Source: an uncultured Bacilli bacterium (GTDB lineage: Bacteria; Bacillota_I; Bacilli_A; RF39; UBA660). From it: a stretch of DNA of 64,000 nt. How positions within the stretch are numbered: the stretch's first letter is position 1; each line of letters begins with the position of its first letter. Shown here piece after piece: positions 7,264 through 61,917 of the stretch. The translations under genes and the position numbers were made by a program. The stretch covers positions 31,026 through 95,025 of the forward strand of contig CAJTIX010000003.1 in the NCBI GenBank assembly GCA_910576795.1. Direction: 5' to 3'. The notes below the pieces were generated by a model that had not been told where the DNA came from, did not search any database, and saw only the letters and a program-made list of their open reading frames with translations.

Positions 7264-7279
7264 TTTCTATCACCTAACT

Positions 7280-7362
7280 AAAAAAGCACACACATTTAGT
7301 GATCCTTAAGGCTGCTATTTTCCAATCCTGACCTGGTTCAAATATAAATGTTGTGCAATAAC
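7280..7362 (-). ncRNA. ffs: signal recognition particle RNA, small (4.5S) type
   Basis: Minus strand reads ...GCACAACAUUUAUAUUUGAACCAGGUCAGGAUUGGAAAAUAGCAGCCUUAAGGAUCACUAAAUGUGUGUGCUUUUUU. It carries the conserved SRP domain IV motif ACCAGGUCAGG...GGAA..AGCAGCC. A closing helix pairs GCACAACAUUUA with UAAAUGUGUGUGC (one bulge). A U-run follows, and a TTGATA / TATATA-like promoter lies upstream. Confidence 0.65.
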
Positions 7363-7400
7363 AATATATATTATTTTTAATAAAATATCAACTATTTAGA

Positions 7401-12103: not shown

Positions 12104-13216
12104 TTATTCCACCTCTTCTATTGTTTTTATTGTTCCTTGTACAATTTCAATTAATTTTGATTGTTTTCGAATAGTTTCATCAATATCTTTTAAATCTGTT
12201 GTTGTTATGATTGTTTGAAGATCTGATTTGATATAATGTAATAAGTTATTCTTTTTACCATCATCCAATTCACTAAATACATCATCCAATAATAAAATTG
12301 GATTTTCTTTTTTATAGGATTTAAATATTTGAATTTCAGCCAATTTCAAAGATAAAATTGCCATTCTTTGTTGTCCTTGTGAACCATAGCTTTTTAACTG
12401 CATATGATCTATATAAAAAGAAAAATCATCCCGATGAGGTCCAATTAAAGTTGTTTTGTAACGTAATTCCTTTTCTCTTACTGATTGAAAAAGGTTTTCT
12501 ATTTTTTCTTTTAATTTTTTTTCATCGGAGTCATATTCGACAAAAGATTGATATACTAAATGAAAATTTTCTAATGATGATATATTGAAAAAGATATAAC
12601 CAATATAAGAATTGATCTTATCTATAAATTTTTTTCGCATTTTCAATAATAAAATAGATTTATCAATTAAATAAGAAGTTAAAACTGAAAAATAATTTTC
12701 ATCAAATTGATTCCAATTTAACTTTATGTAATCATTACGCATTTTTAAAAGACGATTATAATCATTTAATATATTGTAATAATTAGAATTCAATTGACTC
12801 AGTTCTAAATTCAAAAATCTTCTTCTCATATTTGGAGATCCTTTAATCAATTCCAAATCATCAGGATAGAAGATAATAATATTCATTTTTGATAAATAGT
12901 CCCCTACTTTTTTCACAGGGTCTCCATCGATCTTGAGTTGTTTTTTTTTCTCTTCTAAATCAATTTCAAATTCAGTTGTAATTTCATCTATATATGCATT
13001 TCCAATTATTTTTGCTCTTGTATTATTTTCTTGAATTAAATTACTGTCAATAAAAGAGCGATGAGATTTGGTTAAAGCAAGTACATAGATGGCTTCTAAT
13101 AAATTGGTTTTTCCCTGCGCATTTTCCCCATAAATAATATTGATCCCTTTATGAAATGTTAATGAAAGTGTGTTATAATTTCTAAAATGATTTAATTGAA
13201 TATCCTTAATATACAT
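12104..13216 (-). CDS. recF: DNA replication and repair protein RecF
   Basis: 370 aa. Walker A GENAQGKT and an SMC-like signature motif. Start abuts the gyrB... order dnaN-X-recF-gyrB. Confidence 0.9.
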   Translation of the reverse strand: MYIKDIQLNHFRNYNTLSLTFHKGINIIYGENAQGKTNLLEAIYVLALTKSHRSFIDSNLIQENNTRAKIIGNAYIDEITTEFEIDLEEKKKQLKIDGDPVKKVGDYLSKMNIIIFYPDDLELIKGSPNMRRRFLNLELSQLNSNYYNILNDYNRLLKMRNDYIKLNWNQFDENYFSVLTSYLIDKSILLLKMRKKFIDKINSYIGYIFFNISSLENFHLVYQSFVEYDSDEKKLKEKIENLFQSVREKELRYKTTLIGPHRDDFSFYIDHMQLKSYGSQGQQRMAILSLKLAEIQIFKSYKKENPILLLDDVFSELDDGKKNNLLHYIKSDLQTIITTTDLKDIDETIRKQSKLIEIVQGTIKTIEEVE

Positions 13217-13310
13217 ATAACACCTTCTTTTTGCATTTTTATGGGCTATATTAAAACGTTATATGAAATTAATATACCTATACATATATATCATTATAGC
13301 ACAAATTAAA

Positions 13311-13343
13311 TTAAAAAATAAGCTTTTCTGCTTATTTTCTATA
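13311..13343 (-). terminator. rho-independent terminator after the ComK-like gene
   Basis: On the minus strand, AATAAGCagaaaaGCTTATT is followed by a TTTTTT run, directly 3' of the ORF stop. Confidence 0.5.
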
Positions 13344-13348
13344 AATTA

Positions 13349-13798
13349 TTATGATATTTTCCTACTACGTAAAACAGATTCTAATAAAGTAGATCTTAAA
13401 ATTTGATTTTCTAAAGATCCAGCTGATATATTGATTGGTAATTCATATCCATTTTTAAAAATAATTGTGGTTTTTCCTTTTTCTTTATTATATTTTAATA
13501 TTTTTTTGAGTGAAATCCAATAACAGTTATCAAATCTGGGTGAACTAGTTGGAAAAAAGATAATATCATTACTTTCTTCTATCACAATAGGAGCTTTATA
13601 GTTAATACCAATTAAATTTTTCGTTCCCTCATGTCTTCCTAAATAAGAACTTCCAAAAAATTTACAACTATTATCAATAATTTCGGTTGTTGTTTTATTC
13701 ACAGTTATAATATCTTCTTCTTCAATTACTTTAGAGACATTTTTAGAGATAGGGACAATGGCTAATGTTGAAGAATTGATCTCATAATTTTCGACCAC
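13349..13798 (-). CDS. comK: ComK-family protein (competence transcription factor family), short form
   Basis: 149 aa, GTG start with an AGGAGG RBS. From my recollection of the B. subtilis ComK sequence, blocks align as follows: YEINSSTLAIVP / YEVNGATIAVLP; IIDNSCKFFGSSYLGRHEGT / IVDRSCRFFGSSYAGRKAGT; KAPIVIEESNDIIFFPTSSPRFDNCYWIS / KPPIMVDPSNQIFLFPTLSSTRPQCGWIS; FKNGYELPINISAGSLENQILRS / FSNGKTMELPISYNSFENQVYRT. Confidence 0.55.
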   Translation of the reverse strand: MVENYEINSSTLAIVPISKNVSKVIEEEDIITVNKTTTEIIDNSCKFFGSSYLGRHEGTKNLIGINYKAPIVIEESNDIIFFPTSSPRFDNCYWISLKKILKYNKEKGKTTIIFKNGYELPINISAGSLENQILRSTLLESVLRSRKIS

Positions 13799-13948
13799 TT
13801 ATATTCCTCCTTTCAACTTTATAGACATTCTCCGGATAAACATCTATGCCGGGTACTATATACATTGTTCATGTCATATTTTGTTGAATTATGTCAGAAA
13901 ATTATGAAAATTGCATTTTTATGCAAAAAAATAGACCATTTAGGCCTA

Positions 13949-15070
13949 TTAATAAGTACGAATTGGTAAAATCAATTGCGTCAAATCATCACTTTCTGGA
14001 TTTTTGATAATGATTGGTTTAATTTCTCCATTCAATAATAATACAATTTCTTCACTCTCTAAAGATTTTAATGCATCAATCATATATTTTGAACTAAAGG
14101 CAATTTTAATTTCATGATCATTATCTTTTTCCACTTCAATCGTTTCTTCTACATTTCCAATTTCTGGAATATTGGAAGAAATGGTAATGATATTTCCATT
14201 ACTTTCTAATTTGATTGTATTTTTATCAGATTCATTCGTTAACAAAGAAGCACGATCGATTGCAGCATACAAATCATTTAATTTTACTTGAATGGTCAAT
14301 TCATATGTTTCTGGAATTAATTTCGAAGTATCTGGATATGTTCCATTTAATAAACGAGACATCATTACGATACTTTCAAATTTAAATATGACTTTATTAT
14401 TAAAAATATGTAATTCGATTTCTCCTTCCTCTTCATTGATTAATTTCATCAATTCATTTAAATTTCGAGTAGGAATCGTGATATTAATCTCTTCTTCCAA
14501 TGGAGACTCTAGTTCTACCCTTTTACTAGCTAGACGATAAGAATCTGTCGCAGTACATTCTAATATATTATTGGTGATCTTCATATTAATACCAGTTAAA
14601 ATTGGACGTGACTCTTGACTTGAAGTAGCAAATGCAGTTTGTCGAATGATATTTTTGAATACTTTTTTACTAATGACTACTGGTTTTTGATTTTCATTCA
14701 AATCTAAAGTTGGAAATTCGTCTGCGCGATTACAATTTAAATGAAAGGAAGAATTTGTAGTGGTAATTAAGATTTTCTGATCCACTACTTCTTCTATAGA
14801 TACAATTGTATTTGGTAATTTTTTAATAATATCATAAATAAAACGACCTGATACAACGATATCCCCTGTTTTATCAATATGTTCTATATCACTTGCAGGA
14901 ATAAATGTTTTAATAGCAATTTCATTATCTGTACTCATTAAATATAATCCATCAGTTTCAAGTTCAAATTTAATACAATTTAATACTGGTATTATATTTT
15001 TATTTGATATTCCTTTTATCACGTAATTTAAATGTTCGATTAATGTTTCTTGTTTGATTTCAAATTTCAT
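13949..15070 (-). CDS. dnaN: DNA polymerase III beta sliding clamp
   Basis: 373 aa with three-domain beta-clamp architecture. Immediately downstream of dnaA. Confidence 0.9.
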   Translation of the reverse strand: MKFEIKQETLIEHLNYVIKGISNKNIIPVLNCIKFELETDGLYLMSTDNEIAIKTFIPASDIEHIDKTGDIVVSGRFIYDIIKKLPNTIVSIEEVVDQKILITTTNSSFHLNCNRADEFPTLDLNENQKPVVISKKVFKNIIRQTAFATSSQESRPILTGINMKITNNILECTATDSYRLASKRVELESPLEEEINITIPTRNLNELMKLINEEEGEIELHIFNNKVIFKFESIVMMSRLLNGTYPDTSKLIPETYELTIQVKLNDLYAAIDRASLLTNESDKNTIKLESNGNIITISSNIPEIGNVEETIEVEKDNDHEIKIAFSSKYMIDALKSLESEEIVLLLNGEIKPIIIKNPESDDLTQLILPIRTY

Positions 15071-15216
15071 AAATAACTCCTATTCTATATTTTTTTTATA
15101 ATTATTTTTATTATGGAAGTGGAAATTGTGGAAAACTTCTATTTTCTTTGTATTTTCACATAAATATTCATTTTCTTCAATTGGAAAACAAGTGTATAAT
15201 TCCTATTTTTCCACTT
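15071..15216. other. dnaA-dnaN intergenic origin element (AT-rich unwinding region with degenerate DnaA boxes)
   Basis: Long A/T tract TATTTTTTTTATAATTATTTTTATTA. DnaA-box-like TGTGGAAAA at 15128-15136 and TTTTCCACT at 15208-15216. Resembles the B. subtilis incC/DUE arrangement. Confidence 0.45.
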
Positions 15217-16639: not shown

Positions 16640-16900
16640 GTCAAAAATTGTGGAAAAATAATAAATCACATAGTTATCCACATATAAAATAATTTAAATA
16701 TATGAAAGATTGCAGTTTATCCACTAAAATGTGGAAAATTTTATAAATAATATATGGCTAGGTGTATTTATTATTCACAATTTTGTGGAAAAAGTAAAAA
16801 ATAATGATAATTAAATAGAAATTGATGTGCATAATTGTGTGTAATATGGAATAAGGTAGAAATAGTGGATGTGGAAAATGTTTATAAGAAAAAAATGTTA
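16640..16900. other. oriC: oriC DnaA-box cluster
   Basis: DnaA boxes: TGTGGAAAA at 16649-16657; TTATCCACA (perfect) at 16674-16682; TTATCCACT at 16717-16725; TGTGGAAAA at 16730-16738, 16784-16792 and 16870-16878; plus overlapping AGTGGAT. Flanked by divergent dnaA and rpmH. Confidence 0.75.
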
Positions 16901-24027: not shown

Positions 24028-25623
24028 ATGGAAATGGAAAAAGAGGTTCTTATTTTAAACTTGGATGATGTGCTACCAAACCGCTTTCAGCCAAGAATTA
24101 AATTCAATGAACAAAGTATATTAGAATTGGCAGATTCCATAAGAGAACATGGTGTTATCCAACCAATTGTTGTTCGAAAAATAGCGGATAAATATGAAAT
24201 TATAGCGGGAGAACGTAGATATAAAGCAAGTATTTTGGCAGGAAAAACAACTATTCCAGCGATTGTGACTAATTTGGATGATAAAAACAGTGCAGAAATT
24301 GCTTTAATTGAGAATGTTCAAAGACAAGATTTGACACCAATTGAAGAGGCAATTTCATACAAAAAAATATTAGACATGGGATATATCAATCAAGCTTCTT
24401 TGGCAGAAAAATTAGGAAAAACACAATCTACGATTGCGAATAAATTAAGATTATTGAATTTAGCGGATGAAGTGCAAGAAGCTTTATTGGAAGAAAAAAT
24501 TTCAGAAAGACATGCACGTTCATTGTTAAAATTGAATAAAGAAGATCAATTGAAAATGTTAGATCGTATTATGAATGAACGTATGACTGTAAGAAAAACG
24601 GATGAGGAAATTATGAAGATATTAAATGGTACAAATGAAGATAATGATTCGTCAGATGCACTGAAAATAGAACCACAAAAAGTGGAGACAATTAATCAAA
24701 ATCCAATCAAATCCAATCAACCATCATTGAATTCTAATATTTCTACCACATCTAATTTAGAAAATAATTTTATTCAAAATAATGCTACATCCGTTCCAAT
24801 ACAAGAAAAGGATAACATCATTAATCCAGGATTTATGGATGTAGAAAAAATAGAATCTCAAGCACAAGATATTTTTAAGCCAGTTGAATCTAATCCACCA
24901 GAAGAAGAACTTATTTTAGAGGTAAAACCAGAAGATAATGGAACAAAAATAGATATGAATTCTTCACAGCAACCATTCATAGAAGAACAAAAAATAATAG
25001 AACCAGAAGAACCCAAGCCATTTGTTGGAAAATTTTTTAACATGGTCAATTTAAATTCTGAGGAAAAGTCAAATCCAGATTATGTAAGTGACTTAGAAGA
25101 AAAGGAAATGAATATGGATTTTAATAAACCTGTGGAATCTCCGAAATCAGATTTTTCATTAGAAACATTTACGACAGAACCAGTTGTACAGTCAGGTGAA
25201 AATACTTCACAAGTAGAAATGAAAAAAGATGATTTAAATTCCAGTCAATTTATAACACAACCGAATTTTGGTAATCCAAATGCAATTCATACACCAATAA
25301 ATTCATCAGATATAGATGTTCTTCAATCAATTAATCCATATACTTTAAATGATGATTCTGAATTTTCAGGACCTATACATTCACAAGTAGAAATGTCAAA
25401 TCCATCTGGAAATTTAATAAATTCTAATATGAATAATGAAATTCAGCCAGTTATGATGAATAATGAGCAAGAAGAAACAATTCCAAATGTAGATATGAAA
25501 ACAGTAATTAATACCATTCGCGATTGCGTAAGCAAGGTAGAATCATATGGATATACTGTAGATGAAGAGGAAATGGATTTGGAAAATACTTATCAAGTAA
25601 CAATTACTATCAATAAACAGTAG
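24028..25623 (+). CDS. parB: ParB/Spo0J-family chromosome partitioning protein with long low-complexity insert
   Basis: N-terminal 190 aa is a ParB N-terminal (CTPase) domain with the GERRYKAS box plus an HTH. Residues ~195-480 are N/S/E/P/Q-rich low-complexity sequence with a repeated SQVEM motif. The last ~50 aa look like a dimerisation tail. Confidence 0.8.
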   Translation: MEMEKEVLILNLDDVLPNRFQPRIKFNEQSILELADSIREHGVIQPIVVRKIADKYEIIAGERRYKASILAGKTTIPAIVTNLDDKNSAEIALIENVQRQDLTPIEEAISYKKILDMGYINQASLAEKLGKTQSTIANKLRLLNLADEVQEALLEEKISERHARSLLKLNKEDQLKMLDRIMNERMTVRKTDEEIMKILNGTNEDNDSSDALKIEPQKVETINQNPIKSNQPSLNSNISTTSNLENNFIQNNATSVPIQEKDNIINPGFMDVEKIESQAQDIFKPVESNPPEEELILEVKPEDNGTKIDMNSSQQPFIEEQKIIEPEEPKPFVGKFFNMVNLNSEEKSNPDYVSDLEEKEMNMDFNKPVESPKSDFSLETFTTEPVVQSGENTSQVEMKKDDLNSSQFITQPNFGNPNAIHTPINSSDIDVLQSINPYTLNDDSEFSGPIHSQVEMSNPSGNLINSNMNNEIQPVMMNNEQEETIPNVDMKTVINTIRDCVSKVESYGYTVDEEEMDLENTYQVTITINKQ

Positions 25624-36411: not shown

Positions 36412-36945
36412 GTGGACAAAATGAAAAAAATAATGATTGTCATATTTATATTCTTTTTATACAGTATGTTGACAGGAGCAAAAACATCTGCAAGTCTTAT
36501 TCCAGAAGAAGCAATACGATTTCGAGTAATACCAAATAGTAATACAGAAGAAGATCAAGCAATCAAAATAAAAGTCAGAGATGAACTACAAGCAGAATTA
36601 TACAATCTTCTAAAAGATACGAAGGGAATTGAAGATGCAAGAGAAAAAATAAGTGGAGAACTAGATCAAATTAACCAGAACATTGAGAATATTCTAACTA
36701 GTGAAAGTTATCATAAGGGCTATCAAGTATCATTTGGAAGAAATTATTTTCCAGAAAAAACATATAAAGGAATTGTATATGACGCTGGATATTATGAATC
36801 TTTAGTTGTTACCTTAGGAAAAGGTGAAGGAGACAATTGGTGGTGTGTTCTCTTTCCACCTTTATGCTTACTAGAAGCAGATGAAAGTGAAGAAGAAGTG
36901 GAATACAAATTTTTCTTGAAAGAATTAATTGACAAATATCTATAA
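36412..36945 (+). CDS. spoIIR: stage II sporulation protein R
   Basis: 177 aa secreted protein. IRFRVIPNSNTEEDQAIKIKVRD and GEGDNWWCVLFPPLC match conserved SpoIIR blocks. Confidence 0.7.
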   Translation: MDKMKKIMIVIFIFFLYSMLTGAKTSASLIPEEAIRFRVIPNSNTEEDQAIKIKVRDELQAELYNLLKDTKGIEDAREKISGELDQINQNIENILTSESYHKGYQVSFGRNYFPEKTYKGIVYDAGYYESLVVTLGKGEGDNWWCVLFPPLCLLEADESEEEVEYKFFLKELIDKYL

Positions 36946-40034: not shown

Positions 40035-40724
40035 ATGATGCAAAAAGATGAATACCGATATATAGAATATGAAATGTATCAAAAAACAAAAGATACATTA
40101 TTTCAAACAATTGTAAATGAAGATGTAAATCCAGATCTTAACCATATTGCAAAATTTATTTATGAATTAACATTACAATCACCAAATCATCCAAATTTCT
40201 ATAACAATGTAGGAGACTTAAAACAAAAATATCATATCGATTTCAAAATGAATTATAATACCTGGAGTTATCAAATTACGTATCACAATAATACCTTTTT
40301 ATTTCGTCTACTTTCTCCATTCATTCATGATGCCAAAATGCAAAGGGAATTATTTTCGGAAGATAGAAGAAGTAAATGTCATGAAAGAACAATCGCATTA
40401 TTCTCTCAAAATGTAAAATTGGTAACAGGATATGTCAATGATCTACAATTTCCACATTTAAAAACAATTCATAGTTGGCTGGAACAAACGATTGATCATG
40501 AAGAATATGTAATCGATTACGTGATGAACATGGTAATTTTAAAAAGAGATTACGATCGACTAATGAATGTCGATAAAATCAATGAATTAAAGGATCCTAG
40601 TATTATCGAAACTTATCAACAAACCTTTCTCATTCCTGGAAAACTTTATTGTTTAGCAGGAAATGAAATAGCAGAAGAAATCAAACAAAAAATCTTCACT
40701 AATGACATTTTTTCTAAGATATAG
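40035..40724 (+). CDS. hypothetical protein (229 aa)
   Basis: Intact ORF with an AAAGGGGATG RBS. No motif recognised. Immediately upstream of a FemAB-family gene. Confidence 0.45.
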   Translation: MMQKDEYRYIEYEMYQKTKDTLFQTIVNEDVNPDLNHIAKFIYELTLQSPNHPNFYNNVGDLKQKYHIDFKMNYNTWSYQITYHNNTFLFRLLSPFIHDAKMQRELFSEDRRSKCHERTIALFSQNVKLVTGYVNDLQFPHLKTIHSWLEQTIDHEEYVIDYVMNMVILKRDYDRLMNVDKINELKDPSIIETYQQTFLIPGKLYCLAGNEIAEEIKQKIFTNDIFSKI

Positions 40725-42648: not shown

Positions 42649-42671
42649 CGTGTGAAAACACGTTTTTTTCG
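42648..42671 (+). terminator. rho-independent terminator
   Basis: CGTGTGaaaaCACG followed by TTTTTTT. Confidence 0.6.
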
Positions 42672-42742
42672 ACAAAATTACAAAATAAAAACAATTATAA
42701 TATAGAAAAATGCGAATAGAATAAATAGAGAGGAGAATTCAA

Positions 42743-43657
42743 ATGAAAAAGGTAATCATTGCCTCTATTCTTATTTTAGTCGTACCATATTTGATTGTAA
42801 CCTTATGCATCAAAGAAGAAAAAATGAATTTTCAATTTGGTTCTAACTTAATGATCCGTGTCAAAAGAAATGCTACTGGAAATATTGAAAAAGTACCATT
42901 TGAAGAATATATAACAGGTGTACTTGCCGGAGAAATGCCTGTTAATTTTGAACTAGAAGCTTTAAAAGCACAAGCAGTCGCCGCTCGTAGTTATGCGATG
43001 AAAAAAATGGAACAAAATCAAAATAACGAATTTGATGTAGTCGATACAGTTTCGAACCAGGTATATTTGGATGATGCTACCTTAAAAGAAAGATGGAAAG
43101 ATGATTATCCCGAAAAAATCAATAAAATCAAAACAGCGATCACAGAAACAAATGGAGAATATCTCACATATGATGGTGCAGTGATTCAAGCTTTTTTCTT
43201 TTCCACTAGTACAGGGAAAACAGAAAATGTAGAAGAAGTATTTGTGCAAGCATTGCCTTATTTGAGAAGTGTGGATTCTAGTTGGGATGCAGAAGTGTCA
43301 CCAGTTTTTCAAGTCACAACAGAATTCAGTTTAGCGGATTTTTATAGTAAATTAAATCTTCCTTATCAAGAAAGTTTACAGATAGAATTTACCAAAACTA
43401 CTAGTACAGGAAGAGTGAAAGAGCTACTCATAAATGGAACACCATTTAAAGCAAGTGATGTATCTTCTAATTTGAATTTGCGTTCTACTTTTTTCTCTTT
43501 TGAACAAATTGGTAATAATGTAAAAATAGAAACCAAAGGATTTGGACATGGTGTTGGATTAAGCCAATATGGTGCGCAAGCAATGGCAAAAAAAGGATAT
43601 ACCTATGATCAGATTTTAAAACATTATTATCAAGGTGTTGAAATTTCAAAAATTTAA
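42743..43657 (+). CDS. spoIID: stage II sporulation protein D (SpoIID/LytB domain)
   Basis: 304 aa. N-terminal TM segment and a SpoIID/LytB domain (EEYITGVLAGEMPVNFELEALKAQAVAARSYA). Confidence 0.8.
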   Translation: MKKVIIASILILVVPYLIVTLCIKEEKMNFQFGSNLMIRVKRNATGNIEKVPFEEYITGVLAGEMPVNFELEALKAQAVAARSYAMKKMEQNQNNEFDVVDTVSNQVYLDDATLKERWKDDYPEKINKIKTAITETNGEYLTYDGAVIQAFFFSTSTGKTENVEEVFVQALPYLRSVDSSWDAEVSPVFQVTTEFSLADFYSKLNLPYQESLQIEFTKTTSTGRVKELLINGTPFKASDVSSNLNLRSTFFSFEQIGNNVKIETKGFGHGVGLSQYGAQAMAKKGYTYDQILKHYYQGVEISKI

Positions 43658-44376: not shown

Positions 44377-45246
44377 TCAATTGGGTATTATCTTTTTCAT
44401 ATAAGATTCTGCTTCTTTTCTAAAATCATGTAATAGTCGAGAATTATTATAAAATCTATCATTGGTTTCACAGGTAATATCAAGTAGTTCTGCGAGATCC
44501 ATATGTGCTTTTAGGCTACTTTCATGGAGTTGTTTTATTTGAACTAGTAATTGTTTATATGATAACCTATCAAAAATCATATTAGAGATGGGTGTATAGT
44601 ATAGAATAAGTTTGTCATCACCGTTTTCATATTCTTCTGCTGATAAGCCATCCGCTAAATAAAAAAATATCTGATTAAATATATCATGAATATAATATTG
44701 ATTATGATATTGAATTAGATTGGCTGCATGAGTTGCTCTAATGAAATTAAATTTTGGATCCCTATTTGGATTTAAGGAATCATTTTCTTGCACATCATAA
44801 CATCGGTAGCTCTGACAAAACAGCCCTATTTTTTGAAAAATATCTTGATGCAAACTGGAAATATGCCTACAACATCCTTGCCTATGAATTACATCAAATC
44901 CCAAAAACCCATATAAATCGAAAGATCTATCAGTCAATTCTTTATAAGGATATACTGGATTACCGACAGAAAGATAGCCTCGCATAATTAGGTTTTCAAC
45001 TACTTGAGAATAACTAATAGAATTATCATCTATCCCAATTTCTTTTACAATAACTGCTGCAAGTGAAATCAACTTATTGTAATATTCTATATTTTCATAA
45101 AACACATATTTTGCTACTTCAATCTGTAATGATATGTCATTTTGTGATTCCACAATTTTCTGCATCAGCATCGATTGTGGATCTTCTAAAGCTTTTAAAT
45201 CATGTTTAATGAATTCATACATCTGTTTTTGATGAGAAATATTCAT
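44377..45246 (-). CDS. hypothetical protein (290 aa) with HRQGCCRH motif
   Basis: ATG at 45246 with an AGGAGGAA RBS. A perfect sigma-A promoter lies upstream. Conserved-looking Cys pair and several His residues. No family assigned. Confidence 0.55.
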   Translation of the reverse strand: MNISHQKQMYEFIKHDLKALEDPQSMLMQKIVESQNDISLQIEVAKYVFYENIEYYNKLISLAAVIVKEIGIDDNSISYSQVVENLIMRGYLSVGNPVYPYKELTDRSFDLYGFLGFDVIHRQGCCRHISSLHQDIFQKIGLFCQSYRCYDVQENDSLNPNRDPKFNFIRATHAANLIQYHNQYYIHDIFNQIFFYLADGLSAEEYENGDDKLILYYTPISNMIFDRLSYKQLLVQIKQLHESSLKAHMDLAELLDITCETNDRFYNNSRLLHDFRKEAESYMKKIIPN

Positions 45247-45271
45247 AGAGATTCCTCCTTGATGAGAACAT

Positions 45272-45300
45272 ATTATAACACCTAGCATTTTCAATGTCAA
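45272..45300 (-). promoter_or_regulatory. consensus sigma-A promoter for the 44377-45246 gene
   Basis: On the minus strand: TTGACA (45300-45295), exactly 17 bp, then TG-n-TATAAT (45280-45272). Confidence 0.55.
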
Positions 45301-45409
45301 AATTATTTTGTGTATTTCATACAGTAGATAGAATTCATAAAATAAACCTATTTCATTTTGCGTATAAAAAATATACATTACAAATAAAATGAATTAGGGG
45401 GAACATAAA

Positions 45410-48669: not shown

Positions 48670-49029
48670 TCAGTATTCTCGATAGCTACCCATTTTTTTG
48701 ATTGGATCTACTTGTTCAATAAGACCATTATGTAGCGGACTTAATGAAAGCATATTTCCAAATTTTACTTGCTGTGTTTGGATAAATTTATGTGCTTCTT
48801 CAGGACTACAAATAGGTTCTTCTGGAACAACACCTATCAATTCAGGATGTGTATTTAAAATGTGCATTTGTGCATATAGTTGTAATTCTGGTGTTGGTGG
48901 AATTATATTATTATTAGTAATATAATTAACACAATCAAATACAGAGTATAGATTTTGCGTAAGTATAGCATTGCATGTAATAGATAAAACCGTTTCTAGT
49001 TCAAATTCTCTTATATCCTTTTGTTTCAT
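48670..49029 (-). CDS. hypothetical protein (119 aa)
   Basis: ATG at 49029 with a GGAGGATTG RBS. No motif recognised. Confidence 0.45.
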   Translation of the reverse strand: MKQKDIREFELETVLSITCNAILTQNLYSVFDCVNYITNNNIIPPTPELQLYAQMHILNTHPELIGVVPEEPICSPEEAHKFIQTQQVKFGNMLSLSPLHNGLIEQVDPIKKMGSYREY

Positions 49030-49140
49030 AAACAATCCTCCTTCTGGAGTTATATTATAACACATATTAGTATATATGCAACAATTATATATTAATATAA
49101 AAAATATATGTTATAATATAACTATCAGGGAGGTAAACAC

Positions 49141-49905
49141 ATGAAAAAAATGAATGAATTTCTAGGAATTGAAACTTGGAAAACTATTGCCAAAAGAGTT
49201 CAAAAACTACAAATTTCAGATTGTTCTGAACAAGAATTTTCTAAAAATTTAAAAGAATTACAAGGGTTATTATCAGATTTAGATATTTGTATAGAGGCAT
49301 TAAGTCGTGATCCGCAGCATCAAAATGAGGTAGGACTCGCTTCTTTATTACAAGCTATTTATAATAGCAATCGAAGAGAATCTTTGAAAAAGGATTCCTT
49401 TTATGAAAAAATATATCAATTATCTAATTTAGGCATTCAGAATATTCGCTTTTTACCAGTAGAAGAATATTATAGAATGAAAGATATAGTGGTAAGAGAT
49501 TTTAAAGGAATTCATAATGGAGAAAATCTATATAAAGTTTATACCGACGGAACTTTTTCTTTAGAAGAAAGTCTAGAAACAGTAAGATTTAAAAAAGGTA
49601 TGGAACAATATCGCAAATATCATATAAAAGATTTAAAAAATGCAAATTATATCATTAGTGTAGAAGTATTAAAAAGATTGAGCTGTGAAAAAACCAAATT
49701 AGCAATGGCCAGTGCAACTTTGAAAACTTTAGATGGCGTATTTCCATCTCAAGAAGAACTTATGAGATTTTCATTCCCAGAATTAACTATTTCTAAACAG
49801 ATAATACATTGGGGAGATTCTATTCAAATGAAAGAAAAATTCGATGGTTTTGATACTCAAAATGAGAATTATCAAAAGCAATTGCAAAAAGATAGAAATG
49901 TCTAA
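49141..49905 (+). CDS. hypothetical protein (254 aa)
   Basis: GGAGG RBS. Hydrophilic, no recognised domain. Confidence 0.5.
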   Translation: MKKMNEFLGIETWKTIAKRVQKLQISDCSEQEFSKNLKELQGLLSDLDICIEALSRDPQHQNEVGLASLLQAIYNSNRRESLKKDSFYEKIYQLSNLGIQNIRFLPVEEYYRMKDIVVRDFKGIHNGENLYKVYTDGTFSLEESLETVRFKKGMEQYRKYHIKDLKNANYIISVEVLKRLSCEKTKLAMASATLKTLDGVFPSQEELMRFSFPELTISKQIIHWGDSIQMKEKFDGFDTQNENYQKQLQKDRNV

Positions 49906-49997: not shown

Positions 49998-50432
49998 ATG
50001 AACCCAAACCGAGAATTTTGTGCTTCTGCATATATTATAGATCCTATTTCTAAAAAGATATTATTAGTAAAACATAAAGATTATGATAGATGGACACAAC
50101 CAGGTGGTCATATTGAAAAAGGAGAAATCCCAGAAGAGGCTGCAGCTCGTGAAGTTTATGAAGAAACAGGTTTGAAAGTAAAAATATTAGGAGAACATTT
50201 TCCAAGAGAAGAAGATTATATTAGACCACTTGGAATTCAAAGAAATAGATCTAGTAATGGTGAAACATTTATCGATATGATATATCCTGCTATTCCATTA
50301 CATGATATGGAGCCTAAAATGAATGATGAAAGTATCGATATTAGGTGGTTTTCTAGAGAGGAATTGGATACTATTCCTGTATTTGAGGACATTAAAATCA
50401 CAATGGATTATATCTTAAAGAATTATTTTTAA
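49998..50432 (+). CDS. NUDIX hydrolase
   Basis: Nudix box GGHIEKGEIPEEAAAREVYEETGL. Confidence 0.8.
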   Translation: MNPNREFCASAYIIDPISKKILLVKHKDYDRWTQPGGHIEKGEIPEEAAAREVYEETGLKVKILGEHFPREEDYIRPLGIQRNRSSNGETFIDMIYPAIPLHDMEPKMNDESIDIRWFSREELDTIPVFEDIKITMDYILKNYF

Positions 50433-51064
50433 AAGGATACATTACAATATCCTTTTTTAAGTTCTCTTTTCATTTTAGATTTGATTTTGCGATTGATTTT
50501 TTTCCGTCCTTTTGGATATATAATATAAATGAAGATAATGAAAGTGATTATGATTACAATATACCAATAATTTACTTTTTTTGGATCTTCATCACTCCAT
50601 ATACCGATTTGTTTTTCTTTGGCAATTGCTTCATGTTCTTGTAATAAAGAGGTATAAGCATAATCTCCATATAAATAAGCAACCTTGGCAAGGCCATTTT
50701 GAATTAAAGCATCTTGTAATAAAATGTCATCTACATAAACCCATGCGAGATGGCGATTGTATTTGTCATATAAGTCACTATCTTTATCATATTCTAATAC
50801 AATAGTTTTGGCATTCTGAATCGCTTTACATGTAAAATCACTTGCCTCTTTTCCATATGGTTCTTCTTTTTTCTTCGGATGTTTTGTTTCTGGAGTATCA
50901 ATTGCTAAAAATCGTACAGTAATTTCTTCATCTTGAAGCATAAATTTCGCGGTATCTCCGTCTACACATTTTGAAAATGTTACATTCACTTGCCTATTTT
51001 GCGCAAATATAACAGTTGGATATATTATCAATAAAGAGAAAACTAAAAATAAGACTTTTTTCAT
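50429..51064 (-). CDS. secreted thermonuclease (SNase-like) with C-terminal membrane anchor
   Basis: Signal peptide MKKVLFLVFSLLIIYPTVIFA. SNase motifs (TVRFLAIDTPETKHP...YGKEAS, AWVYVDD). C-terminal hydrophobic tail followed by a KR-rich tract. ATG at 51064 chosen on its RBS. Confidence 0.75.
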   Translation of the reverse strand: MKKVLFLVFSLLIIYPTVIFAQNRQVNVTFSKCVDGDTAKFMLQDEEITVRFLAIDTPETKHPKKKEEPYGKEASDFTCKAIQNAKTIVLEYDKDSDLYDKYNRHLAWVYVDDILLQDALIQNGLAKVAYLYGDYAYTSLLQEHEAIAKEKQIGIWSDEDPKKVNYWYIVIIITFIIFIYIIYPKGRKKINRKIKSKMKRELKKGYCNVSF

Positions 51065-51174
51065 ACAACCATCCTTTATTATCAGTATAGCAGGTGTAGA
51101 TAAATATAAGCAAGTAGAAAGTTGACAATTTTGAGTAAGCTGTCTTACAATAAAAAGGAAAGGATGAATGTGAT

Positions 51175-51885
51175 ATGCAAAAGAAACCAATGATTGGAAT
51201 TATTGGAAGACCCGATATAGCAAGCGATGAGGATGCAGTAGTCTGCATTTGGGAAAAGACAAGAAGGGCCATTGTTCAAAAAGGCGGAATTCCACTACTT
51301 GTATTACCTACACAAAATCTGATATATGAAGAGTTACGGCCAAAAGATACACCAAGATTAACGATTCAAGAAAAAGAAGATCTAAAATCAGTTGTGGATT
51401 GTTGTAATGGACTATTGATACCAGGTGGGTACAAATGGTATGAATACGATACTTTTATTTATCAGTACGCATTAGAAAAAAATATGCCAGTTTTAGGTAT
51501 TTGCGCAGGAATGCAGATGATAGCAAGTGTAGATAATATGAATAGAGAGGAAGAAGTGAAAGGAAATGCAAAAAATGATACAGCAATTGATCATCATCAA
51601 AGAGAACAGAAATATGTACATAGTATAAATATAATGGATAATACTTTATTAAAGAAAATAGTTGATAAAAATGAAATTCAGGTCAATAGTAAACATAACT
51701 ATCATGTACAAACTACGACAAATTTAGTCATTTCTGCTTATTCAGAAGATGGTTTAATAGAAGCAATAGAGCATCCAAAGAAAGAATTTGTAATTGGAGT
51801 GCAATGGCATCCTGAAACAATGTTAGATTATGATGAATCTGCAAATAAAATATTGGATGCTTTTATAGAAGCTTGTAAGAAATAA
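51175..51885 (+). CDS. class I glutamine amidotransferase-like / peptidase C26 (gamma-glutamyl hydrolase family)
   Basis: Catalytic Cys LGICAGMQM, and His in GVQWHPE. Confidence 0.75.
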   Translation: MQKKPMIGIIGRPDIASDEDAVVCIWEKTRRAIVQKGGIPLLVLPTQNLIYEELRPKDTPRLTIQEKEDLKSVVDCCNGLLIPGGYKWYEYDTFIYQYALEKNMPVLGICAGMQMIASVDNMNREEEVKGNAKNDTAIDHHQREQKYVHSINIMDNTLLKKIVDKNEIQVNSKHNYHVQTTTNLVISAYSEDGLIEAIEHPKKEFVIGVQWHPETMLDYDESANKILDAFIEACKK

Positions 51886-53011: not shown

Positions 53012-54919
53012 ATGAGTAGTATTTATTTTTCAATTAGTGCGTTATTTTGCATTATATTACTATTAGTTTTATTTTTTTCTAAAAAAAAGATAGAAAGTAA
53101 AGAAACTAAAATTTATGGTTTTATGCTAATTAGTAGTTTGATAGATGTTATTTTAGTTATAGTTGAATTGCTAATTACATACTATTGTTCTACAGAAAAA
53201 GCAGAACTAATTGTAAAGATTTTAAATAAAATTGATTTTATGCATTATATTCTTTGGCCTTTATTACTCACTTTATATATTTATTACATTACGTACAAAG
53301 ATACAAAAAAATATAATAAATTTAAGAAGTTTATGATTTCATTTAGTATTATGGCAATTTTTGTTGAATTTCTATTACCAATTGATATTATCTCTAATCA
53401 AGAAACAATGGGTGTAACAGGGATAGGAACCATGTTTATTTATAGTGTTGCTTTAGTTAACTTTGCAATAGAACTATTTATTTTTATAAAAAATATAAAA
53501 TCCATCAATCGCAAAAAAGCAATCCCTTTTCTATTTTTAATTGTATTTATTGGAATTGCTGTGATTGTGAGGGTATTAGATCCTACATTAATTGTAATTC
53601 CTGCAATTATTGTGTTTATCAATATGATTATGTACCATACGATTGAAAATCCAGACTTAAATATGATATCGCAATTGGAATTAGCTAAAAATCAAGCAGA
53701 AAAAGCCAACCGTGCCAAATCCGATTTTTTATCTAGTATGTCTCATGAAATTAGAACTCCATTAAATGCCATTGTAGGTTTATCAGAAGATAACTTAACC
53801 TATCAAGATCAATTACCAAAGGAGGTTGTTGAAAACTCAAAAGACATCGTAAATGCGAGTCAAACTTTACTAGAAATTGTAGGAAATATATTAGATATCA
53901 ATAAAATCGAAAGTGAAAAAATGGAAATGGTAGAAAATCCTTATCACTTTAAAGAAGAAATTAAAAGGATGGCAAAAGTAACCTCAACTCGTATTGGTGA
54001 AAAAAATATTGAGTTCAATTTGAATATTGCGGAAGATATCCCAGATGAATTAATAGGCGATAAAGTACATGTCAAAGGAATTATCAACAACCTATTAACA
54101 AATGCTATTAAATATACAGAACAAGGAACCATTGATTTAAATATAAAATGTATCAATGAAAAAGGAATTTGTAATTTAATTATTACTGTACAAGATACGG
54201 GAAGAGGAATCAAAGCAGAACAAATTAATAAATTGTTTACTAAATTTGAAAGACTTGATATTGAAAAAAACTCTACTACCGAAGGAACAGGATTAGGGCT
54301 TGCGATCACCAAAGCATTGGTAGATATGATGGGTGGAAAAATCAATGTGCAAAGTCAGTATGGGAAAGGGTCTATCTTTATGGTTCAATTACCACAAAAG
54401 ATTAGTAAATTAACTATTCCAAAAGAAAATGTTTCAGATACACAAATTAAAAATAACGAAGAAATTCCTGCAAATTACGAAAATAAGAGAATCTTAATTG
54501 TAGATGATAATAAACTCAATATTAAAGTGGCCAAACGAGCATTAGCTGATTTTAACTTTCAAATTGAAGAAGCAGAAGATGGTTTGCAATGCTTAGAAAA
54601 AGTAGTGAATGGTGATGAATTTGATTTAATTCTAATGGATATTATGATGCCTAATATGAGTGGAGAAACAGCACTACAAAAATTAAAAGAAAATCCAAAC
54701 TTTAAAATACCAGTGATAGCTTTAACTGCAGATGCAATCGCAGGAGCGAAAGAAAAATATATTAAAGAAGGCTTTGTGGATTATATTCCAAAACCATTTA
54801 GCAGAGATCAAATCAAAGAAAAATTAGATAAGATATTTAAACACAGTAACTTTGGAAGCGAAGATAGGTGGAAAAATGCGGCAACCTATATATTTGAATC
54901 CAATAAAGACCAAAAATAG
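53012..54919 (+). CDS. hybrid sensor histidine kinase / response regulator with polytopic N-terminal sensor
   Basis: About six TM segments. HisKA H-box [11 protein letters not shown], HATPase_c N/G boxes, and a C-terminal REC domain (ILIVDDN...[10 protein letters not shown]). Confidence 0.85.
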
Positions 54920-55001: not shown

Positions 55002-55577
55002 GTGGAACAAGAAAAAAATATAGAAACAGAAGAGTTCACAATTGAAAAAGTAGAAACGAAAAATGGTGTAGAAGTGCAAAGAGCAAGAAGTATGGGTCAT
55101 GCAATATTACAATTATTATGGTCTGCCTCATCGATTGTAACTGCATGTGGTTGTTTCATGACAATGCCAAATGTTATACATCCATTAGAATCAGTTGCAA
55201 TAGGAACTGGTGGAATCAATTTAATAGGATTAGCTTTTCAACAATTTTCGAATTATAAAAATGAATTAAAACGTCCAACTAAAAAAGAAATCGAGAATAA
55301 CCCTACAGAATTTACAATTGAAAAGGTAACGAAAACGTCAAATAAAAAGATCCAAAAAACGGTCAAAGGCTATCGAAAAATGCTTAGATGGGTATCGTTC
55401 ACATTTATATATTCAATGATGATTATTTGCGCACATTCTAGTTGCAATATATCTACAAGTTTATTTGAATTTATTTCTTGTGCAAATGGAACATTTGGAT
55501 TACTACTCAGAATGTCTAGTTTTGAAGATATATATACTCGTACAGTAGAAGAAGACCAGAAAGAAAAGACAAAATAA
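55002..55577 (+). CDS. hypothetical membrane protein with internal tandem duplication
   Basis: Two repeats: [E/P]TEEFTIEKVxxKxG, then a basic stretch, then a Cys-containing hydrophobic segment (TACGCFMTMP; ICAHSSCNISTS...ISCANGTFG). Confidence 0.45.
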   Translation: MEQEKNIETEEFTIEKVETKNGVEVQRARSMGHAILQLLWSASSIVTACGCFMTMPNVIHPLESVAIGTGGINLIGLAFQQFSNYKNELKRPTKKEIENNPTEFTIEKVTKTSNKKIQKTVKGYRKMLRWVSFTFIYSMMIICAHSSCNISTSLFEFISCANGTFGLLLRMSSFEDIYTRTVEEDQKEKTK

Positions 55578-57742: not shown

Positions 57743-58654
57743 ATGACAACACAGTCTGTACAACAGGTATTAAATGAATTAAAAAATAAAAAGGAAAATA
57801 TGATTTTAACAAGTTCTGCTTTCGGAGTAGCAGAAGCATATCTCTATGCATATAAGAAACAATGTAATTTAGATCATAAGATAGTAACCATTACTGAAAT
57901 ATATGAAGTGAATACTCAAAAAAAAGGATTAGATGAACTTGACTTATCCTTTTATATCGAATCTTCCTTAGCACTTAATTTAAGTGAGCAATTACTGAAA
58001 AGAAATTTAAAAGATGAGACACTTAGAATTATCAGAACAAAAATGCAAAGAAATTGTGAACGCTTTCAAGTAGGTATGGAAAGAGACTATAAAACAAAAT
58101 ACCAACAAGGCATGTATTTAAATCCCATATTAGATTATATAAAATCCAATTTTGAATGGGAGTGGTTAATTGCAAATTTTGATAGGCCTATTGTAGAAGC
58201 AAGTAAAATCCAATCTTGTATACATCAATATGTAAATGGTCTTAGAGGACCATCTCGCATGATAGTTTCTGCCTATGACCCAAAAGTAATTGGAGAAGAA
58301 AGTTATGGATCATTTCAAATTATGAATCTTTCTAGTCAGAAAGAATACCAACAATTATTACAAGAAGCGATGCTGATGCTTTATCATTTATATCCGATTT
58401 TATGGAGACATCACCAAATGATTTATCGTGTTTTAAATCATCCTATTTTCCAGCAATCTTATATCAATGGAGAATATACTTATGACAATTTTATGAGAGG
58501 ATTACGAAAATTTTATGATGCTCACCATTGTATTGACGCCAGTGGTTGCTTTATAAGTGATGAAGAATATCTTTGCATTATACAAGACTATATAAAAAAT
58601 AGCATTTCTGAAAATATAGAAGAACAAAAGAAAAAGTCGAAACTTTATATCTAA
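57743..58654 (+). CDS. hypothetical protein (303 aa)
   Basis: AGGAGAATAAAAG RBS. No recognised domain. A bidirectional terminator hairpin (AGTCGAA...TTCGACT) follows. Confidence 0.5.
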   Translation: MTTQSVQQVLNELKNKKENMILTSSAFGVAEAYLYAYKKQCNLDHKIVTITEIYEVNTQKKGLDELDLSFYIESSLALNLSEQLLKRNLKDETLRIIRTKMQRNCERFQVGMERDYKTKYQQGMYLNPILDYIKSNFEWEWLIANFDRPIVEASKIQSCIHQYVNGLRGPSRMIVSAYDPKVIGEESYGSFQIMNLSSQKEYQQLLQEAMLMLYHLYPILWRHHQMIYRVLNHPIFQQSYINGEYTYDNFMRGLRKFYDAHHCIDASGCFISDEEYLCIIQDYIKNSISENIEEQKKKSKLYI

Positions 58655-59931: not shown

Positions 59932-60498
59932 TTAAGAGTTTTTCTTTTGCATATCTAAATAATAGTTACGAAGTTCTTTGAATCTTTGATAATGGATAAT
60001 TTCTCTCTGTCTCAAGAAAGAGAGTGGTCCTAAAATATCAGGATCGTTTGTCATATCCATTAAGTGTTCATATGTAGCACGCGCTCTTTGTTCAGCAGCC
60101 ATATCACTTTCGATATTGGCAATTGGGTCTCCAGCTGTTTTAATATAAGCCATTGTAAATGGATTTCCAAATGAATCAGATGGGAATAAATCCATTCCAA
60201 ATTGTGCATAATTCGCACCCAAACCAGCTGCTTCCATTTCTTCTATGGTCGCCCCATTCGTTAATTGATAAATCATGGTAGATATGATCTCAACATGGGC
60301 AAGTTCTTCTGTACCAATATCTGTTAACAAAGCTTTACCTTTTTCATCTGGCATGGTATAACGCTGATTTAAGTATTGCCAAGCTGCAGATAGTTCACCA
60401 GCAGGACCCCCGTATTGTGTTACTAAGTATTTTGCCATACGTAGGTCTTTATTTTTAATGTTAACTGGATATTCTAATTTTTTCTTATAAATCCACAT
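59932..60498 (-). CDS. cotJC: spore coat protein CotJC (Mn-catalase-like ferritin fold)
   Basis: 188 aa. MWIYKKKLEYPV...AKYLVTQYGGPAGELSAAWQYLNQRYT...LTDIGTEELAHVE closely matches CotJC/Mn-catalase di-metal ligands. Confidence 0.8.
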   Translation of the reverse strand: MWIYKKKLEYPVNIKNKDLRMAKYLVTQYGGPAGELSAAWQYLNQRYTMPDEKGKALLTDIGTEELAHVEIISTMIYQLTNGATIEEMEAAGLGANYAQFGMDLFPSDSFGNPFTMAYIKTAGDPIANIESDMAAEQRARATYEHLMDMTNDPDILGPLSFLRQREIIHYQRFKELRNYYLDMQKKNS

Positions 60499-60510
60499 AT
60501 TTGTTCCCCC

Positions 60511-60951
60511 TTATTTATTTTCCCATGGCCATGGACGATTATCCCAAGCCCAAGGATATACATTTGAAGCATCACTATCTACTAAGATAGGACCATATTT
60601 ACTTTCATATTCATTTCTTAATTTATTGGCTTCCATACGATACTGATTGAATAACGCAATCATATCTTTATCATTTTGATATAAATCCAAATATAAATTG
60701 ATATCAATAGTTGCGAATGAAAGTGCATCTAAGAACATAAGTAATTGTTCCCTTTCGTTCATAGGTGTAATATCAAGAGGTTGATTTAATTTATAAGTAT
60801 TGTAAAGATTTGGAAACATATTTCCTCTAATAAATCCTTGATATGGATCAAAAAGTGTGTTCGCATTCGCATCTTCTGTATAGAGTGGTTGATTGAAATT
60901 ATCATTGTTGTAATTGTAGTAATCTAAATTTTTATTTTGGTAATTATACAT
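60511..60951 (-). CDS. cotJB: spore coat protein CotJB
   Basis: C-terminal YGPILVD...YPWAWDNRPWPWE matches the CotJB signature. ATG at 60951 with an AAGGGAG RBS. Confidence 0.7.
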   Translation of the reverse strand: MYNYQNKNLDYYNYNNDNFNQPLYTEDANANTLFDPYQGFIRGNMFPNLYNTYKLNQPLDITPMNEREQLLMFLDALSFATIDINLYLDLYQNDKDMIALFNQYRMEANKLRNEYESKYGPILVDSDASNVYPWAWDNRPWPWENK

Positions 60952-61215
60952 AAAAATTTCTCCCTTCAACCTATCCTATGGTTTTTTGACTATTTTGTAT
61001 AGGTATGTAACCATTTTTTGATATTTTTCTATGTTCGGACATTATTTTTCACGATTGAGACAGATTTTGAAAATTTGCATATAACATACTGTAAAATTTT
61101 GGAAAAAGGGGTTACAATAGTATAGAATAAGATGGACTTATTGATTAGAAGGTTCTTCTAATTTTACAATTGTTCACTAATTGTACACAGAATAGAATTA
61201 GGGGTTGTATGATGT

Positions 61216-61917
61216 ATGATAAATTATATTATATGTGATGATAAAGTTTTATTTAGGCAAGAAGTAGAAGAAATTATTGATCGTGTTATGATGCGCAATG
61301 ATATACTATATGAAAAACATTCATTTGAAAGTTATGATAATGATTTTATGAAGATTATGAATCAAAAAAAGGCACTTAAGATTTACATATTAGATATTGA
61401 AGTGAATGGAAAATCTGGAATTGATATTGCAAAACGGATTCGTAATGATGACATCGAAAGTATGCTTATTTTTTGTACTGCATATTATGAAAAATATAAA
61501 AAAGATATGTTAAAAAGTAAGTTTCTATTTTTAGATTTCATCGATAAAAGTGGAAATTATCAAAAAGAATTAGAGGATTCAATTGAGCTTGCTCTTAAGA
61601 ATCTAAGTATGAAAAATATCATTCGTTTTAAAAATCAAAATATTGTACATACGATTGCAACCAAGGACATTTTATATATTATAAGGGACAAAGACCGTAA
61701 GTGTACGATTCAGACAACTGATAATCAGATTATCGTAAATAAGACTTTGATTGAATTAAAAAATATGTTAGATAGTCGTTTTGTATATGCGCATAGAGCA
61801 TGTATTGTGAATTATGACCGTATCTCTCAATTCAACAAAAAGGACAAAACTATATTATTTGATAACAATATGGGAACAGATTTGGTATCTTCTAGATTTA
61901 AAATGGAGGATGAATAA
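61216..61917 (+). CDS. LytTR-family response regulator (REC + LytTR DNA-binding domain)
   Basis: REC with acidic pocket (CDD), phospho-acceptor region YILDIEV, and T/K residues. C-terminal LytTR domain (IRFKNQNIVHTI...ILYIIRDKDRKCTIQT...FVYAHRACIVN). Confidence 0.75.
   Translation: MINYIICDDKVLFRQEVEEIIDRVMMRNDILYEKHSFESYDNDFMKIMNQKKALKIYILDIEVNGKSGIDIAKRIRNDDIESMLIFCTAYYEKYKKDMLKSKFLFLDFIDKSGNYQKELEDSIELALKNLSMKNIIRFKNQNIVHTIATKDILYIIRDKDRKCTIQTTDNQIIVNKTLIELKNMLDSRFVYAHRACIVNYDRISQFNKKDKTILFDNNMGTDLVSSRFKMEDE

Follow-up and report, generated by a model that had tools for sequence, protein, structure and literature searches.

A ComK-family gene limited to the core domain, fixed between dnaN and recF in uncultured gut Bacilli and preceded by a conserved tandem-box promoter resembling Spo0A sites

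The stretch of contig CAJTIX010000003.1 analysed here, 64 kb of DNA from an uncultured Bacilli bacterium (hereafter the window), carries a gene of the ComK family, here called comK, in its chromosomal origin cluster. Its neighbours on the same strand are dnaN and recF, with dnaA upstream and gyrB and gyrA downstream; recF directly abuts gyrB, and the remB/yaaB gene is absent between them. With modest confidence, we favour the reading that comK encodes a functional regulator consisting of the ComK domain alone, placed under Spo0A-type control and fixed at dnaN-recF. The locus contains the following features, given with strand and basis.

12104..13216, minus strand: recF, the downstream flank (list of open reading frames (ORFs); SMC_N match in locus L024)
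13293..13301, minus strand: extended -10 promoter of recF, TGCTATAAT (TGnTATAAT conserved)
13312..13341, minus strand: terminator-like hairpin and T-run after comK (dG -11.1 kcal/mol)
13349..13798, minus strand: comK-family ORF, 149 amino acids (aa), GTG start (ORF list, Pfam ComK, BLASTP against B. subtilis ComK)
13806..13811, minus strand: ribosome-binding site AGGAGG, 7 nt before the GTG (read from the sequence)
13821..13847, minus strand: weak hairpin in the 5' untranslated region (5'-UTR) of comK (dG -6.4, z -1.06)
13855..13860, minus strand: -10-like element TATAGT (anchor of the spacer alignments)
13872..13896, minus strand: three tandem boxes, TGACA-taatt-CAACA-aaata-TGACA, at 10-bp spacing (repeat pattern)
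13907..13919, no strand assigned: AT-box AAAATTGCATTTT (chance-level match)
13930..13950, minus strand: terminator-like hairpin and T-run directly after the dnaN stop codon (terminator scanner match; dG -9.1)
13949..15070, minus strand: dnaN, the upstream flank (ORF list; Pfam DNA_pol3_beta domains on the identical gene in locus L024)
16649..16878, no strand assigned: oriC upstream of dnaA, a cluster of DnaA boxes (in 230 bp, 8 sites that match TTATCCACA with ≤1 mismatch)

An earlier note on this DNA, written from the letters alone, had placed a 149-aa ComK-family ORF with its own strong ribosome-binding site between dnaN and recF in the dnaA-dnaN-recF-gyrB cluster, and both the ORF and its AGGAGG are there as described; GGAGG or GGGGG is found at the same position in the orthologous loci. 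The location at the origin is borne out by the order of the ORFs, by the DnaA-box-like sites, and by the GC skew, which changes sign between 16 and 17 kb, coinciding with the DnaA-box cluster, about 2.9 kb from the comK start. Membership in the family was upheld by hmmscan, which matched the protein to the Pfam ComK profile (PF06338) over its full length (residues 3-146 cover 2-150 of the 152 profile positions) with 155.2 bits against a cut-off of 22.3 (E 1.4e-45), and by BLASTP against the exact COMK_BACSU entry (P40396), which aligned 149 aa at 38% identity (E 6e-36) with residues 9-157 of B. subtilis ComK. The four sequence blocks that the note had matched to B. subtilis ComK do align in the BLASTP comparison, and CxFFGSSxxGR, FFPTxSP and C.WIS are kept. 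The protein is also shorter at its C-terminus, as had been noticed: it stops 3 residues past the end of the alignment at ComK residue 157, and lacks the last ~35 residues of ComK in addition to the first 8. The gene is thus a ComK-family member made of the ComK core domain only, and we refer to its product as short ComK.

Besides ComK, Pfam returned a sub-threshold Tli3 match for short ComK and neither an S4 domain nor LytTR, and searches of NCBIfam and of PDB sequences assigned it to no family and brought no meaningful match. In Bacillus, the dnaN-recF interval encodes the S4-domain protein YaaA/RlbA (~70 aa), and the recF-gyrB interval encodes RemB/YaaB. Short comK holds the same slot as yaaA in the order dnaA-dnaN-X-recF-gyrB-gyrA; its product differs from the usual occupant in giving no S4 match. 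Annotation pipelines already call such proteins 'competence protein ComK'; we found no paper on a ComK gene between dnaN and recF, or on ComK in RF39 or RFN20.

The position of the gene is conserved far beyond the window. A search of 5.8 billion proteins returned 610 homologues, the best 120 of which all have the ComK domain, are mostly 148-155 aa long and are almost all metagenomic. Among GTDB species genomes we found 23 loci whose proteins are 43-89% identical to that of the window. In each of the 23, the comK homologue adjoins, and shares its strand with, dnaN and/or recF; in all 20 loci that contain both flanks it lies between them, in the order yidC-rnpA <> dnaA-dnaN-comK-recF-gyrB-gyrA. 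Twenty-two of these loci come from uncultured metagenome-assembled genomes (MAGs) labelled Bacilli, Bacillales, Mollicutes, Tenericutes or Firmicutes. One locus, L012 (JBLNAG010000002.1), was deposited in a MAG labelled Ignavibacteriales; it has an AT-rich origin cluster of the Bacilli type with a short comK, and the contig is probably mis-binned or mislabelled. HMMER, run exhaustively on 1.84 billion cluster representatives, yielded 1154 ComK clusters, which fall into two length classes of ~146-157 aa and ~185-205 aa. The seven short-class representatives at 35-40% identity that were looked up are all flanked by dnaN and/or recF, and the single long-class representative that was looked up, of 196 aa, has an unrelated neighbourhood. 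Short ComK was therefore found beside dnaN and/or recF in 41 of 41 loci at 35-89% identity (the window, the 23 GTDB species, 7 distant representatives of 50% clusters and 10 metagenome loci). In a neighbour-joining tree of 128 representatives, the long forms group with B. subtilis ComK and the window protein lies outside that clade; the split is approximate, as 5 short sequences group with 26 long ones in the long clade, from which 7 other long sequences are excluded.

The earlier note had considered a ComK homologue at the origin unexpected in an Erysipelotrichia-like organism. The label was close, the host belonging with RF39-like uncultured Bacilli and not with Erysipelotrichia proper, but within this lineage the arrangement is the rule and not a surprise. 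The gene is under purifying selection: the ratio of non-synonymous to synonymous rates (dN/dS) is 0.16 against the relative L002, dN is similar to that of dnaN and below that of recF in the more distant comparisons, and 36 columns are invariant across 48 homologues.

Alignment of the dnaN-comK spacers uncovered a promoter element that is shared among many of these loci. The -10 reads TATAAG in most relatives, and in several loci it is extended (TGnTATAAG). Upstream of it stand 2 or 3 direct repeats of yGACA exactly 10 bp apart, retained despite sequence divergence, the proximal box ending a constant 11 nt before the -10. On the other strand, the boxes of the window read TGTCAta / TGTTGAA / TGTCAga. 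The consensus of 20 loci is TTCGACA-aAT-T.GAcA-Aat-TTCGACA, and in the 130 nt preceding comK the heptamer TTCGACA shows a 69-fold enrichment (2.88 versus 0.042 per kb). The paired pattern yGACA-N15-yGACA matches once in the 64 kb of the window, at the comK promoter, and 12 times in the 24 loci (277 kb, both strands); these 12 occurrences are spread over 12 of the 24 loci and all lie 68-103 nt upstream of comK on the comK strand, with none elsewhere. The pattern stays with comK where a gene is inserted after dnaN (L018), and the furthest GTDB relative, L023, has kept it. Metagenome contigs scanned for the arrangement of two boxes and a -10 gave at least 120 matches; among the matches listed, 10 are comK promoters, which stand in the dnaN-comK-recF context, several with three perfect CGACA boxes, and of the AT-rich non-comK matches that were checked, 15 of 18 lie inside ORFs. 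No other gene with the comK promoter architecture was detected in the window, in the 277 kb of loci or among the metagenome matches listed.

The comK gene appears to be transcribed alone. The earlier note had proposed an independent transcription unit closed by a downstream terminator, and both proposals were substantiated: terminators lie on both sides, the gene has its own promoter, and transcription can restart at the promoter of recF. The post-comK hairpin was omitted by the strict terminator scanner because it has fewer than 3 G-C pairs, and in most relatives a hairpin with a T-run, of different sequence, is found at both the post-dnaN and the post-comK positions. TGnTATAAT precedes recF in the window and in 23 of 23 GTDB loci, in most of them at a near-constant distance from the recF start, which argues that recF is independent of read-through from comK. 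Together, the two terminators and the recF promoter make comK an insulated single-gene unit. A conserved hairpin in the comK 5'-UTR was also considered and set aside; about half of the relatives have species-specific hairpins at this position (mean z -0.7), and we regard it as a weak feature only.

The recF leader (13214-13301, minus strand, and the comK-recF spacers of L001-L023) is unusually conserved in sequence. About 8 nt after TGnTATAAT it carries GTGTATAGGAGTAC, which contains the Shine-Dalgarno-like AGGAG (the window version, GTATAGGTATA, is at 13273-13283), and further downstream a block containing TAAAAATG; the leader motif has no second occurrence in the window. No pairs were predicted by RNAalifold for 16 leaders, so the conservation is one of sequence and not of structure. 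An Rfam search over 13150-14000 at a permissive threshold returned noise only.

Candidatus Aphodocola excrementigallinarum, the source of locus L022, has been placed in the GTDB order RF39 (PMC8035907), and RF39, RFN20 and ML615J-28 group with Mycoplasmatales and Erysipelotrichales and include walled, spore-forming species (PMC10868615). The window, with a G+C content of 29%, encodes MurA, FemAB and MreB, and it contains the sporulation genes spoIIR, spoIID, cotJC (Mn catalase) and cotJB (36412-36945, 42743-43657 and 59932-60969), because of which the source is probably an endospore former, and a walled one, though its relatives often bear the label Mollicutes or Tenericutes.

What might bind the boxes is suggested by their sequence. 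TTCGACA is the reverse complement of TGTCGAA, the 0A box recognised by Spo0A, and tandem 0A boxes with a 3-bp spacer are bound head-to-tail, as at the abrB promoter and in the Spo0A-DNA structure. The same arrangement, a head-to-tail tandem with a 10-bp period near a promoter, is found in the 20-locus consensus. The comK promoter has a -10 and no properly spaced -35, and its boxes span about -24 to -50 on one face of the helix. The comK gene of B. subtilis is also monocistronic. Its promoter, PcomK, is bound directly by phosphorylated Spo0A (Spo0A~P) (PMC3297582); the short comK promoter differs from PcomK in having no conserved K-box, and the gene lies between dnaN and recF and not at an unrelated locus. 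We infer that the boxes are Spo0A sites, through which comK would be switched at stationary phase or at entry into sporulation.

Several points weigh against this reading. Each box of the window is 1-2 bases off TGTCGAA, the perfect boxes being those of relatives, and spo0A is not among the genes of the window. The boxes could instead bind another response regulator, or short ComK itself, given that 20 bp separate the outer boxes, the distance seen in direct repeats of the LytTR type; they could also repress rather than activate, since the box that reaches -24 lies nearer the -10 than activator sites usually do. A second subclade (L015, L016 and L019-L022) has a single TTGACA-like box left, 20 nt from GATAAT, so that the control of comK is not uniform across the lineage. 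A DnaA-box-like TGTGGATAA (≤1 mismatch) overlaps the -10 of that subclade, about 40-50 nt upstream of comK, and hints at control of comK by DnaA there. Late competence genes (comG, comE, comF, dprA and ssbB) and a prepilin motif were not detected in the window by a Pfam and motif survey. Finally, the constant position of the gene may reflect the stability of the origin cluster alone and not a link to replication.

The properties of the protein bear on what the regulator would do. Short ComK most likely binds DNA, because the whole ComK core is kept and its fold may, by prediction, be LytTR-like; it differs from LytTR regulators such as S. pneumoniae ComE and S. aureus AgrA in that it has no sequence-level LytTR match and no receiver domain, and has an extra N-terminal sheet and a C-terminal helix. 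A B. subtilis ComK without its last 25 residues keeps DNA binding and loses activation of PcomG, and B. cereus ComK2, with 22 C-terminal residues fewer, reduces comG expression (PMC3128618). The MecA/ClpCP degron, too, consists of the last ~25 ComK residues (PMC8138137). Unlike B. subtilis ComK, short ComK has neither the activation region nor the degron, both of which lie in the C-terminal tail; its action on promoters may therefore differ, and the MecA-ComS proteolytic switch of B. subtilis cannot apply to it. A degron-like motif (FMLYPK...) was absent from all short-class sequences and present in 1 of 31 long-clade representatives. The degron is accordingly not a general trait of long ComKs, and its loss matters for the comparison with B. 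subtilis only.

On the reading that we favour, short ComK would have become fixed in the variable dnaN-recF slot, ~3 kb from oriC, in the ancestor of an RF39-like lineage of uncultured gut Bacilli. A terminator would close dnaA-dnaN, comK would be transcribed alone up to a second terminator, and recF would restart from its extended -10. Spo0A~P, or a similar response regulator that binds direct repeats, would switch comK in place of K-box autoregulation. The protein may then act more like the modulators of the ComK2 type than like the classical activator, and its targets would most probably be genes of DNA uptake and recombination, as in the K-state. An extra gene stands between dnaN and comK in some relatives, as follows.

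L013, 5415-5852: prepilin-type protein with the PF07963 N-terminal methylation motif, inserted directly upstream of comK
L014, 5419-5904: dCMP deaminase (an enzyme class like ComEB), inserted directly upstream of comK
L015, 4738-5907: ORF of 389 aa with a weak HAD match, inserted between dnaN and comK
L018, 5435-5671: ORF of 78 aa without a match, inserted between dnaN and comK

The prepilin-type gene and the dCMP deaminase beside comK hint at a link to competence. No yaaA-like ORF was detected in these four enlarged dnaN-comK gaps.

The prepilin-type gene of L013 also speaks for a different explanation, in which short ComK is a classical competence master activator that works through K-boxes in its own and the late com promoters, with positive autoregulation and an input from gene dosage at the origin. 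Membership in the ComK family at 38% identity to the B. subtilis protein is in its favour, as is a K-box-like arrangement of type I at 13907-13940. The earlier note had taken the AT-box AAAATTGCATTTT for half of such a ComK box; the AT-box is where it was said to be, at 13907-13919, but its reading as a half-site was not supported. The window has 23 instances of AAAA-N5-TTTT, where shuffles give an expectation of 26.8 ± 5.7, and at chance frequency an AT-box is no evidence of a K-box. With K-boxes defined as two AAAA-N5-TTTT boxes 8, 18 or 31 bp apart, none with ≤1 mismatch was detected in the whole window. The type-I arrangement has 2 mismatches, its degenerate partner lying at 13928-13940 at the 8-bp spacing. 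The T-run and stem of the dnaN terminator make up the first half of the pair, which is common only to the window and its closest relative. K-box autoregulation of comK was rejected on these grounds, single boxes being at chance frequency and paired boxes not conserved. What the promoter does conserve is a different motif, and the C-terminal region that activation requires in B. subtilis is missing (PMC3128618). We thus consider a classical activator rather unlikely.

An AT-box, AAAACACGTTTTT, stands directly beside an exact TTCGACA at 42655-42674 (plus strand), ~75 nt upstream of spoIID; this may be merely the T-run of a terminator and a chance heptamer.

Another candidate is a DNA-binding modulator or repressor that does not activate, similar to ComK2, which would sit on ComK-type sites and dampen or time genes of the competence kind, or would repress more generally by binding AT-tracts. 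Short ComK is truncated at its C-terminus like the ComK2 proteins of B. cereus and S. aureus, and like the 25-residue deletion that does not activate (PMC3128618), and its whole DNA-binding core is conserved; S. aureus ComK2 has been reported as repressing competence (PMC12491500). The ComK2 proteins, however, are second copies beside a full-length ComK1 and are not encoded at the origin, whereas the short form is the only ComK seen in the loci examined, is fixed at the origin and stands largely apart from the long forms in the tree. No second, long ComK turned up in the loci of the lineage, although no search was aimed at one, and a sole ComK fits a primary regulator better. A modulator of this kind is accordingly a doubtful candidate in our view.

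The invariant place of the gene in dnaA-dnaN-X-recF-gyrB-gyrA, in 41 of 41 loci, raises the question of a role in replication or in the chromosome, in which a protein controlled by Spo0A or DnaA would bind AT-rich origin DNA or couple initiation to development, like SirA and Sda. The Spo0A-like boxes in one subclade and the DnaA-box-like site over the -10 in another are compatible with such a role, as is a protein divergence as low as that of DnaN. The origin cluster is, however, among the most stable gene orders, so that position alone is weak evidence, and we know of no member of the ComK family that acts on replication. We find this role improbable. The same low standing is given to its more specific form, in which short ComK would not be a competence activator but a development-controlled protein acting on the origin or on replication and recombination genes; as a ComK-fold counterpart of SirA and Sda, it would couple initiation to Spo0A-driven differentiation and, in the second subclade, to the status of DnaA, and would be kept at oriC for dosage or timing.

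A competence-type regulator beside oriC is also found in S. pneumoniae. There, work of Slager et al. from 2014 is said to have shown that comCDE lies beside oriC and that replication stress raises its copy number. The regulator family differs, and the analogy in dosage is a hypothesis: the origin position of short comK may matter through dosage and equally may reflect the stability of the cluster.

A decaying remnant or a chance ORF without function, which the shortness of the protein relative to canonical ComK might suggest, is refuted by the conservation data, namely the full coverage of the Pfam domain, the 36 invariant columns, the dN/dS of 0.16, and the retention of the gene with its ribosome-binding site and promoter down to 35% identity.

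Other features of the window were recorded along with the locus. DnaA-box-like sites (≤1 mismatch) number 42 in the whole window against 25.8 expected, one of them in the dnaA-dnaN spacer (15127-15135). A ParB-like protein of 531 aa (24028-25623, plus strand) has ParB_N and HTH_ParB followed by ~330 residues without a Pfam match and is about twice the usual length of ParB; no parA/soj gene lies between rsmG and its gene. The only Rfam hit of the whole window at the gathering threshold is a small signal recognition particle RNA (RF00169, 59.5 bits; 7269-7367, minus strand), which, as in Bacillus, adjoins tadA and dnaX. A response regulator of the LytTR type (61216-61917, plus strand) is encoded ~6 kb from a hybrid histidine kinase that has a receiver domain at its C-terminus (53012-54919, plus strand). 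A 253-aa protein with a staphylococcal-nuclease domain (50429-51190, minus strand) is possibly an extracellular DNase and could bear on DNA as a nutrient or as a substrate of transformation. Six ORFs of 131-333 aa have no Pfam match at E≤1e-5 (40035-40724; 44377-45378, minus strand; 48670-49065, minus strand; 49141-49905; 55002-55577; 57743-58654).

Almost all that is known of ComK comes from Bacillus and close relatives, in which it is governed by K-box autoregulation and, through its C-terminal tail, by MecA/ClpCP. The loci described here add a large and separate set of ComKs that consist of the core alone and are fixed in the dnaA-dnaN-recF-gyrB cluster of widespread uncultured gut Bacilli, with a genomic address of their own and a strongly conserved promoter element of their own that resembles tandem Spo0A sites. 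They offer a natural test of the role of the ComK core without its tail, a candidate for a direct link from Spo0A to ComK that would be simpler than the one in B. subtilis, and a case in which to ask whether a developmental regulator encoded beside oriC matters through gene dosage or the timing of replication.

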